Positions 5,420-7,295 of a DNA stretch of 64,000 nucleotides are shown here, in pieces. The notes beneath the pieces are model-generated. The model searched no databases. It was not told the origin of the DNA and worked only from the letters and a program-made list of their open reading frames with translations. Origin of the DNA: Candidatus Poribacteria bacterium (GTDB taxonomy: Bacteria; Poribacteria; WGA-4E; PCPOR2b); NCBI GenBank assembly GCA_965116925.1, contig OZ220744.1:5152001-5216000 (forward strand), in the 5' to 3' direction. The translations under genes were made by a program, and so were the position numbers. Within the stretch, counting starts at the first letter, position 1, and every line of letters starts with the position of its first letter.

Positions 5420-6952
5420 ATGTCAACCAAACATGACGAAATTGCCAAATTTATTGCGGCTCGGGAAGGCGTTTCTTATAATCAGGGCCCAGGTCCAGAT
5501 ATCAAAACGCCTCATCAAATTATTGAGGTGGAAACAGCCGACACCATTACAGATGCCGCTCGACAACTTCGAGGGTACAGAGGCCCCGTCTACGTGGTTG
5601 GAGTAGACTCCAAAGCCACTGAGGCGGCTTTGGAGCACTACAAAGATACAACAATTGGAGTGATGGATGCTTCCGGTAAAATCCTGAAGCGTTCGACACG
5701 CAAGAGGTCGTCTTCAATGAACATTGAAAAAGAAGAGCTTGCAACTGAACAAAGAGATACTGCGCTCATGTTGGGAGAACGATTGAAACGATTTAGGCTT
5801 GCTCGTGGCATGTCGCTTGACGACCTAGAGGCTGCTATTGATGGACTAGTTACCAAGCAAGCTCTATCAAAATATGAACGCGGGAAGATGCAAGCCAAGG
5901 TGACAACACTCAATCGAATTGCTGCCGCATTGGGAATTAAATCTGCTCAATTGTGGGGCGAACCAACCTGTCAGGTGGAGTGGGTTGCCTATCGAAAACG
6001 CGCTCGCATGGGTAAGAAAGAACAAGAACAGCTACAGAGTCTTGTCGCTGAAGTGTTGGAGAAACGGGTCTCCCTACTGGAGCGGATGGGTGAACACAAA
6101 ACTCTTGAACTTCCGATTCAAGAGTTTCCTATTTCCAAAATAGAAGACGCTGAAGGTGCTGCCCTCGTGCTCCGTCAGCAGTGGGACCTCGGCATTGCCC
6201 CAATTGCAAATCTTGTGAGTGTGCTTGAAGACCATTTCATCCACATCATTGAGGTTGATGCGATTGAAACCTTTGATGGCATTTCTGCTGTGGTGCGAGA
6301 TAACGACAAAAATGTGCTGTCGGCAGCGATCGCAACGCGCCGGGGCACACCGGGAGACCGACATCGACTCAACATAGCACACGAACTCGGACACCTGACT
6401 TTGAAATTGGGTGAAGGGATTGATGCAGAAAAAGCTGCTTTTCGATTTGGTGCCGCTTTTCTTCTGCCCGCCGAGGAATTGCGTCGGGAAGTCGGTGAGA
6501 AGTTAAGTCGAATTCAGTCAGAACAGCTCCAGTACCTAAAATGGCGTTACGGAATGAGTATTCAAGCAATTCTTTATCGGTTGAAGGATTTGCGGATTAT
6601 TACCGACTCCTACTATACACAGTGGTGCATGGAAATCAACAAATTGGGTTGGAAAAAGCGAGAGCCCATTGAAATACCTCCTGAAAAACCAAAGTGGTTT
6701 CATCAGCAGGTGTTTCGCGCGCTTTCCGAAGGATTGATAGAGGAGGAGGAAGCCGAACAACTCCTTAACGACACACTGGAGACCGCTTCATCCCCGTCGC
6801 TGATTGAACGACGCGCTTTCTTTGAACTGCCAACGGATTTGAGACGCAGCCTGTTGAGAGAACAGGCGAAGCAAATGGCGGATTATTACCAAAACGATCC
6901 CGAATGGCGCGAACTTGAAGGGGGGGACCTTGTTGAATACGAATCCACCTAA
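5420..6952 (+). CDS. XRE-HTH + ImmA/IrrE-family metallopeptidase fusion with extra N-terminal domain and antitoxin-like C-terminal tail
   Basis: LGERLKRFRLARGMSL..KQALSKYERG HTH; RHRLNIAHELGH HExxH; AFRFGAAFLLP; ATG 5420 with GAGG RBS; possible internal start at 5717. Confidence 0.85.
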   Translation: MSTKHDEIAKFIAAREGVSYNQGPGPDIKTPHQIIEVETADTITDAARQLRGYRGPVYVVGVDSKATEAALEHYKDTTIGVMDASGKILKRSTRKRSSSMNIEKEELATEQRDTALMLGERLKRFRLARGMSLDDLEAAIDGLVTKQALSKYERGKMQAKVTTLNRIAAALGIKSAQLWGEPTCQVEWVAYRKRARMGKKEQEQLQSLVAEVLEKRVSLLERMGEHKTLELPIQEFPISKIEDAEGAALVLRQQWDLGIAPIANLVSVLEDHFIHIIEVDAIETFDGISAVVRDNDKNVLSAAIATRRGTPGDRHRLNIAHELGHLTLKLGEGIDAEKAAFRFGAAFLLPAEELRREVGEKLSRIQSEQLQYLKWRYGMSIQAILYRLKDLRIITDSYYTQWCMEINKLGWKKREPIEIPPEKPKWFHQQVFRALSEGLIEEEEAEQLLNDTLETASSPSLIERRAFFELPTDLRRSLLREQAKQMADYYQNDPEWRELEGGDLVEYEST

Positions 6953-7295
6953 TCCGCGTCGGGGAGAGGTTTGGGATCTAAACTTCGATCCGACGATTGG
7001 CGCAGAAATTCAGAAAATCCGTCCCGCTGTAGTTATCAGTTCCGATCGCGTGGGACATTTGCCGATTAAGTTGGTCGCCCCAATCACCGGTTGGCAAAAC
7101 CGATTTCTGAGAAACGTCTGGCATGTTCGTATCGAGCCCAGTGGCATCAACGGCTTAACAAAGATTTCAGCTGTTGACACGCTGCAAATCCGGGGGGTGG
7201 ATGTGAAACGCTTTATTAGCAGACGAGGCAGACTCAACACAACACTTATGCAAGAGATTACTGCGGTAATCGCCGCAATTATCGAATACGAATAA
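6933..7295 (+). CDS. mazF: MazF/PemK-family endoribonuclease toxin
   Basis: PRRGEVWDLNFDPTIGAEIQKIRPAVVIS...VAPIT...QIRGVD; TTG start (6930 or 6933) overlaps upstream gene end. Confidence 0.92.
   Translation: MNTNPPNPRRGEVWDLNFDPTIGAEIQKIRPAVVISSDRVGHLPIKLVAPITGWQNRFLRNVWHVRIEPSGINGLTKISAVDTLQIRGVDVKRFISRRGRLNTTLMQEITAVIAAIIEYE

Follow-up and report, generated by a model that had tools for sequence, protein, structure and literature searches.

Control of CBASS by an XRE helix-turn-helix (HTH) protein and an M78 peptidase is known from CapH and CapP, which, in the sections of the report cited here, lie upstream of and divergent from the immune operon and include 15 fused systems (10.1101/2022.04.27.489752). 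The ssDNA groove of CapP and IrrE is formed by a GAF domain, according to the part of the work that treats it (PMC13228613). Fusions of XRE and peptidase domains beside toxin genes have been predicted since 2009, when Makarova et al. outlined COG2856-Xre 'three-component TAS' with PIN or RelE (PMC2701414, in the passage concerned). They recur in PD-lambda-2 and, with the XRE-ImmA protein acting as antitoxin in the excerpts consulted, in RosmerTA (10.1101/2023.03.22.533649; 10.1101/2022.05.11.491447) and RipAB (10.1101/2025.09.02.673660). Here we analyse a tail-bearing XRE-M78 family that splits the three jobs of such fusions, cutting by the peptidase, DNA binding and the hold on the toxin, among an intact active site, a named operator and a discrete ~50-aa module predicted to bind the toxin, and whose member beside a poribacterial CBASS operon is reasonably likely to be an autoregulated repressor-antitoxin cassette that also controls neighbouring defence operons.

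The fusion protein and its locus

The window, a 64,000-nucleotide stretch of Candidatus Poribacteria DNA, lies in a 6.47 Mb genome assembled as one contig. Four genes forming a type II CBASS operon precede ORF 5420-6952 (Table 1). An initial annotation, made from the letters of the window, had described an XRE HTH, an HExxH peptidase and a separate tail in this one ORF, and we confirmed all three in its 510-aa product: Pfam matches to HTH_3 (residues 122-175) and Peptidase_M78 (313-389) are both over cut-off, HELGH occupies residues 321-325 (6380-6394) and the tail as originally quoted spans 462-507. The end of the ORF overlaps mazF by 23 nt with no antitoxin ORF between, in agreement with the earlier remark that a separate mazE is missing. 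The mazF start is either a TTG at 6930 behind a GGGGGGA tract or lies at 6915, which would lengthen the overlap to 38 nt, and GGD codons of the tail double as the mazF ribosome-binding site. A simple scan, which is a weak test, found no terminator between cap3 and the cassette. One RNA run yielded mostly contigs 90-95% alike, from a relative, over HTH-to-mazF and none over CBASS; such contigs show neither level nor co-transcription.

Table 1. Positions of the CBASS operon, the cassette and their control elements. Bare numbers count from the first letter of the window; G000:C1 denotes the contig that contains it.
Feature	Coordinates	Strand	Evidence or remark
CBASS promoter TTGACA-17-TATAAT	G000:C1:5151881-5151909 (L002:15882-15910)	+	12/12 box letters
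Predicted CBASS operator GGTTTATAA-N21-TTGTCAACC, over -10 box	G000:C1:5151900-5151938	.	starts 100 bases before position 1
CBASS leader, 3' end	1..72	+	promoter and predicted operator 62-119 bases before position 1, outside window
CBASS effector, PD-(D/E)XK nuclease-SAVED (Cap4-like)	73..1584	+	PADLOC 1e-110; SAVED domain
CD-NTase	1604..2737	+	PADLOC Cyclase 3e-158; SMODS
Cap2 (E2-E1)	2730..4580	+	PADLOC and domain matches
Cap3 (JAB)	4559..5080	+	PADLOC and domain matches
Cassette's own promoter-like site TTGAAA-17-CATAAT	5328..5356	+	homologous to CBASS promoter block
Weak operator copy GATTCATAA-N21-TTGTAAACC	5347..5385	.	score 11.8, genome rank 12
N-terminal domain, residues 1-96, minimal PD-(D/E)XK-like fold	5420..5707	+	separate gene in relatives
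Linker, residues 97-116	5708..5767	+	ex-intergenic DNA, apparently read through after stop loss
XRE helix-turn-helix, residues 117-180, recognition helix VTKQALSKYE	5768..5959	+	PF01381 E 3e-11; dN/dS 0.07
M78 (ImmA/IrrE-type) Zn peptidase, H321-E322-H325 and E337	6200..6619	+	PF06114
Tail, residues 460-510, predicted MazF-neutralising module	6797..6952	+	three helices, disordered linker before, acidic end
mazF (PemK family)	6930..7295	+	PF02452 E 2e-23; start overlaps tail codons; dN/dS 0.16

Downstream of mazF, a ~368-nt non-coding repeat (7337-7704 of the window), bounded by 13-nt inverted repeats and containing 27-nt direct repeats, looks like a MITE; it has 19 BLAST matches in the genome, 9 of them of at least 330 nt, and copies of its 10-nt end motif number 116 + 108, most with TAG/CTA on their flanks. 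The next gene (7777-10845) encodes glycyl-tRNA synthetase alpha and beta in one fused ORF (glyQS); upstream of it, this Poribacteria genus has a variable defence site.

Residues 1-96, overlooked in the initial annotation, constitute a further domain. The usual homologue is ~394 aa long and starts at M117. In L155, L157 and L166 the N-domain has its own ~96-aa gene immediately upstream, and in other genomes it sits elsewhere. Stop codons stand at the place of the linker in these same three loci, and dN/dS over the 20-codon joint is 1.6, that is, neutral (six sequences), whereas all the domains evolve under purifying selection (0.07-0.22). We take the N-domain to have been joined to the HTH through stop loss. 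Sequencing error was rejected as the cause of the fusion, because it recurs in a paralogue, four other genomes and 13 protein clusters. Modelled at pLDDT 94, the domain has a restriction-endonuclease-like fold, with 3dnx as the closest structure (Z 8.2, rmsd 2.4, 92 aligned) and PaqCI, AF1548 and a Pyrococcus repair endonuclease as the other top VIA matches (Z 6.2-6.5); Foldseek returned no match at E 0.001. D27 and E36 are invariant, followed by V and then E38, which stands where the K of D-(D/E)xK is expected. Many Poribacteria have the ~96-aa PD-(D/E)XK-fold gene on its own (L133-L148), and its look-alike clusters in the ESM Atlas share no Pfam family, leaving the family without a name. For the cassette, the N-domain is a local passenger.

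The peptidase active site appears intact throughout the family. All 91 tail-bearing proteins have HExxH, at least 95% have E337, and H321/E322/H325 with E337 match the H/E/H/E metal site in the published description of CapP, as far as that description was drawn upon. The fusion protein model (pLDDT 92) has IrrE (3dti) and CapP (7t5t) as its best Foldseek matches over 171-182 columns. After residue 330 it contains helices alone, then a disordered linker at 453-458 and the three tail helices, and it includes no GAF or other known sensor domain; the proposal that the protein senses ssDNA or DNA damage as CapP does finds no footing in this model. A PDB sequence search with the peptidase region alone gave no match. 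PDB entry 9vzy, a 393-aa 'HTH cro/C1-type domain-containing protein' that matches the peptidase part at E 8e-9, may represent a recent structure of an XRE-M78 fusion. Ahead of the tail, the linker is disordered and also lacks conservation, so no specific cut site is apparent there. R192, after the HTH, is in contrast nearly invariant, a pattern better fitted by a cut that would separate the HTH than by one that would separate the tail.

The tail module and its MazF

The tail alone has no Pfam match, and PDB sequence searches with it returned chance matches alone. A profile built from 23 tails and searched against 1.84 billion representatives found 727 clusters (50% identity) at E 0.001 or better; these ~50 aa define a predicted antitoxin family without a name. 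Among 149 inspected clusters of the best 150, 18 are whole or partial XRE-M78 proteins; most others are small proteins consisting of the tail alone or carrying it C-terminal to another domain. Domains that end in the tail comprise AbrB/MazE, RHH-like, DUF2281, DUF2283, DUF433, AF2212, HTH_17 and XRE, and one cyanobacterial tail protein is Phd-like by eye. This shuffling has the look of an antitoxin's toxin-binding end.

Gene neighbourhoods tie the tail to mazF. We collected 159 XRE-M78 loci from two collections, with taxa including Nitrospirae, Chloroflexi, Acidobacteria, Gammaproteobacteria and Omnitrophota, and left out 11 that ended too near a contig edge. A mazF gene lies behind 80 of the 88 tail-bearing loci versus none of the 60 tail-less ones, a count that includes some partial mazF matches and a few near-duplicate loci and in which the tail-bearing proteins are kin. 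The resemblance of the tail to stand-alone small genes found before mazF, noted in the initial annotation, was thus borne out, by the search with the tail profile and by the neighbourhoods alike. Among 401 genomes of a cyanobacterium's phylum the tail occurs in 38, with mazF behind 36 of 46 tail rows that have no peptidase; the 46 include one locus counted twice, one frameshifted fusion and one plasmid record. Conversely, 26 of the 27 best cyanobacterial MazFs (at least 157 bits, the next scoring 144) stand directly behind a tail and the 27th lies at a contig break, a partly circular result, since such loci had supplied 15 of the 68 profile rows. When the gene order was checked prospectively, the tail stood directly upstream of MazF in 8/8 cases. 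An apparent tail-MazF fusion in L222 proved to be a frameshift and was discarded.

Across 68 pairs, the final 22 positions of the tail are acidic (mean -4.6), whereas the MazF partners are basic (+2.1). RP and T columns are conserved in MazF, with R and T in at least 90% of 68 rows, which we take to be the catalytic residues by reference to E. coli MazF. Twelve of 68 tails match the curated MazE model NF050104 weakly (best E 3e-5), four of six stand-alone tail proteins reach 14-17 bits against its cut-off of 65, and the tail profile hits genes before the next MazF subfamily at E 0.02-0.04, which is a lead. Overall, comparison supports the prediction that the tail is very probably an antitoxin, seemingly a mobile module of that type tied to one MazF subfamily. 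Synechocystis Ssl2245-Sll1130, in the portion of its description used here (PMC4963859), is a candidate studied relative.

Decayed forms of the cassette also exist. In one genus (g8; L119-L132) the XRE-tail genes have lost the peptidase by deletion and mazF is lost or decayed; what precedes them is often a recurring pair of genes or another TA module. The tails of these HTH-tail genes without an intact mazF behind have a dN/dS of 0.14 (nine sequences), a pairwise value that may predate the loss of mazF, and a cognate MazF occurs at another place in 8 of the 20 g8 genomes searched. Three further loci (L113-L115; G084, G124, G085) retain only chimeric remnants in which another small gene is fused to the tail, with no mazF; in G084 and G124 these sit at the glyQS site. 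The remnants point to deletions between tandem cassettes.

A predicted operator at cassette and defence promoters

The motif GGTTGACAA-N20-22-TTGTCAACC, with N21 in 47 loci, precedes the HTH start in 57 of 70 non-redundant loci. Its consensus, GGTTKAYAA-N21-TTRTMAACC, is a bipartite inverted repeat of 39 bp, whose left arm usually covers the -35 box while the right arm follows closely on the -10 box. Promoter consensus accounts for part of the conservation of the left arm, which includes TTGACA or, in Poribacteria, TATAAT. The window's own site and its relatives (L153-L157) were outside the training set, and a whole-genome scan at spacer 21 placed the best site on the CBASS promoter (26.8), where L153-L155 also have it. 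The second site lies 28 nt before the Argonaute gene at a paralogous locus (23.6). A second matrix, from 44 of 45 loci of other phyla, gave the same top two (CBASS 26.3, Argonaute 22.6) and ranked the weak copy at 5347-5385 18th. Background maxima were 12.3-24.2 over 22 other spacers and 12.1-22.6 over 15 column shuffles. The CBASS site (26.3) alone tops all controls; the Argonaute site (22.6) falls within background and therefore stands out by its place, not its score. High-scoring operator-like sites at spacers 16, 20 and 22 were mostly inside long ORFs and were set aside.

Four comparisons served as controls for the site. The strict pattern occurs in 9 of 29 family genomes, all nine with the full-length gene; in a tenth full-gene genome the contig begins 307 nt upstream of the gene, and the other 19, three of them outside the protein search, have none. 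Eleven orthologous CBASS operons (61-81% identity) without the cassette have no promoter site (best scores to 11.5); operons with the cassette have it in 4/4 cases, but these represent one event in one genus. Sites scoring at least 16 accompany 69 of 71 loci with a K/R-type recognition helix, mostly training loci, versus none of 16 with an S/T-type helix, which are close kin within Poribacteria; three loci were unclassified. No cyanobacterial tail locus without XRE has an operator. The operator family probably predates the tail, given that two tail-less XRE-M78 genes (L051:133 and L054:86) carry a related operator with spacer 20. Taken together, these patterns make it highly likely that the conserved operator is real, its binding by the XRE domain being predicted.

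Comparison of cargo suggests how defence genes came under this operator. The cargo-less L157, L158 and L166 have a strong operator directly before the cassette, and the CBASS and cassette promoter blocks align locally with a score of 115 (shuffles 70.6+/-6.7, maximum 95). From these two observations we infer that CBASS and Argonaute were placed behind the cassette promoter and that a weaker copy was kept. The paralogue in the same genome, 84% identical, lies behind Argonaute and a type III RM operon: this second cassette copy (L001:8435-13590; G000:C1:2357437-2362599) follows a 675-aa Argonaute and a 311-aa unannotated gene, with the type III RM upstream. A relative, G143 (L156), has an Argonaute fragment at the glyQS site that holds CBASS in the window genome, and L152 (G007:C1:2912500-2921700) has two tandem cassettes, each with its own operator.

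The association with CBASS is not a general one. For 91 tail-bearing loci, with flanks up to 8 kb and many shorter, we clustered 786 neighbour ORFs, scanned 248 of 249 neighbour representatives of 220-520 aa at E 1e-25 and searched with the window's genes. A CD-NTase occurs in just 7/91 loci, and a fixed CBASS partnership was accordingly rejected. Three of the seven are same-site relatives (L153-L155), one has the gene at about 6 kb (L175), and in L035, L206 and L191 70-77 nt separate mazF from its start, both genes having the same orientation. RM, BrxL, DarG, AbiEii, SIR2, SspD and many housekeeping genes are among the other neighbours. The link to CBASS drawn in the initial annotation thus survives at this locus, as a transcriptional one through the predicted operator on the CBASS promoter, and fails as a general association.

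Proposed switch, alternatives and relation to known systems

We propose that the XRE domain binds the inverted repeat over the sigma-70 promoter and represses it, as the conserved sites give good reason to expect. The C-terminal end of MazE binds and silences MazF; the tail, judged by co-occurrence and domain shuffling, would with still better confidence do the same to the co-translated toxin. It is likely that in this Poribacteria genus the CBASS operon, or at the paralogous locus the Argonaute operon, has come under the strong operator and the cassette follows with a weaker copy, so that CBASS would be repressed from downstream. ImmA, IrrE and CapP cut their separate repressors. By analogy, the peptidase here may switch off its own repressor-antitoxin: on a signal, there is perhaps an even chance that M78 cleaves one of the protein's own subunits, most probably in the stretch from HTH to peptidase, derepressing CBASS and the cassette. 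With less likelihood, MazF might be freed only after that, through turnover of the tail fragment, leading to stasis or abortive infection. As the predicted operator sits at the CBASS promoter, an immune operon and an RNA-cutting toxin may answer to a single switch.

Four other readings bear on this proposal. The initial annotation suggested that the peptidase senses DNA damage (ssDNA), cuts and releases MazF directly, giving a second killing arm fired with CBASS. The intact M78 site and the operator predicted on the CBASS promoter would suit this, as would the precedent of VapKSC, in which, on the part of the account cited, a DNA-damage regulator was co-opted into a TA (PMC13373217). We consider it unlikely nonetheless: the protein lacks the GAF that forms the ssDNA groove, the linker preceding the tail shows no conservation, cleavage behind the HTH would spare the tail, and most loci have no CBASS.

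Slightly less likely is that the cassette is an ordinary autoregulated TA in the defence hotspot before glyQS, that the CBASS operator is an insertion leftover of little weight, and that the peptidase is structural or has another substrate. The very varied neighbours with so few CD-NTases, the homology of the two promoter blocks, as after a duplication, and the strong operator directly before the cassette in cargo-less relatives are all compatible with such a history. What it leaves unexplained is that the arms stay near consensus while the spacers differ at the CBASS and Argonaute promoters, that the strict site is found solely in family genomes keeping the full repressor, and that the CBASS operator overlaps a perfect -10 box.

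An arrangement like that of RosmerTA, with the peptidase as the antitoxin that destroys or inactivates MazF and the tail merely docking the toxin, draws on the XRE-ImmA antitoxins already cited for RosmerTA and RipAB and on the best PADLOC match, RmrA (E 1e-42, residues 120-449). It is improbable, as the same MazF subfamily pairs with peptidase-less tail proteins and tail-less XRE-M78 relatives have no mazF behind (0/60). The C-terminal domains of DdrO and CapH serve oligomerisation, and the g8 HTH-tail genes do persist under purifying selection without peptidase or intact mazF, but a tail that is mainly a repressor oligomerisation helix and peptidase substrate is very improbable when the tail also occurs alone or behind unrelated DNA-binding folds, mostly before mazF, and when the g8 genomes with a cognate MazF elsewhere and the possible age of their dN/dS signal weaken that case.

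For the autoregulated repressor-antitoxin cassette, a broader claim is possible but doubtful: that a widespread single-protein switch (repressor, self-cleaving peptidase and MazF antitoxin) captures several CBASS types and Argonaute under one operator, so that one signal induces them and frees an RNase. If true, CapW, CapHP and CapKS would be joined by a fourth class of immune-operon regulators, one that brings its own kill arm and senses by something other than GAF. The predicted control of CBASS by a downstream gene is one that searches for upstream divergent regulators would miss.

Among described systems, CapH/CapP share an XRE HTH and an M78 peptidase beside CBASS (PADLOC capP 2e-11, capH 8e-7 here) and repression at the CBASS promoter, which is predicted here. 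The present cassette is something other than CapHP: its gene is co-oriented with CBASS and follows it, whereas theirs, as published in the sections cited, are upstream and divergent, and its product lacks the C-terminal GAF of CapP. It has in addition an antitoxin tail, its own mazF and the 39-bp bipartite operator. RosmerTA and RipAB (RmrA, Spr1629) likewise have an XRE-M78 antitoxin gene in a two-gene TA, and 14 RmrA profiles match the fusion protein (best 1e-42; NF052239 99.6 versus a cut-off of 335). Their toxin in RosmerTA is RmrT, a diverse group that makes the family border loose; here it is a PF02452 MazF with no PADLOC match, and neutralisation is predicted to reside in the added MazE-like tail. 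COG2856-Xre and PD-lambda-2 (PMC9519451) also place an Xre-peptidase fusion in an operon with a nuclease toxin, and an analogy to the autoprotease LexA was drawn there; the partners in the text cited are PIN, RelE or HigB, and that text mentions neither MazF nor a tail. VapKSC, in the account cited above, is a conceptual analogue, an immune-operon regulator built into a TA; it uses kinase/STAS with VapC, and homology is not claimed.

Within the literature searched, mostly open-access texts, neither an XRE-M78 protein with a MazF-binding tail nor such an operator was described, with nothing relevant in the part of PMC12457610 that was covered; the tail-bearing family may be represented in the NetFlax dataset and in Table S1 of Lau et al. 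MazEF offers the remaining likeness: an upstream overlapping gene, a DNA-binding N-terminus, an acidic helical C-terminus, a PemK toxin and an operator at its own promoter, with AbrB or RHH in place of the XRE, inserted peptidase and Pfam-less tail found here. Judged by its sequence, the cassette thus appears to resemble RosmerTA in gene form, MazEF in toxin control and CapHP in its predicted output.
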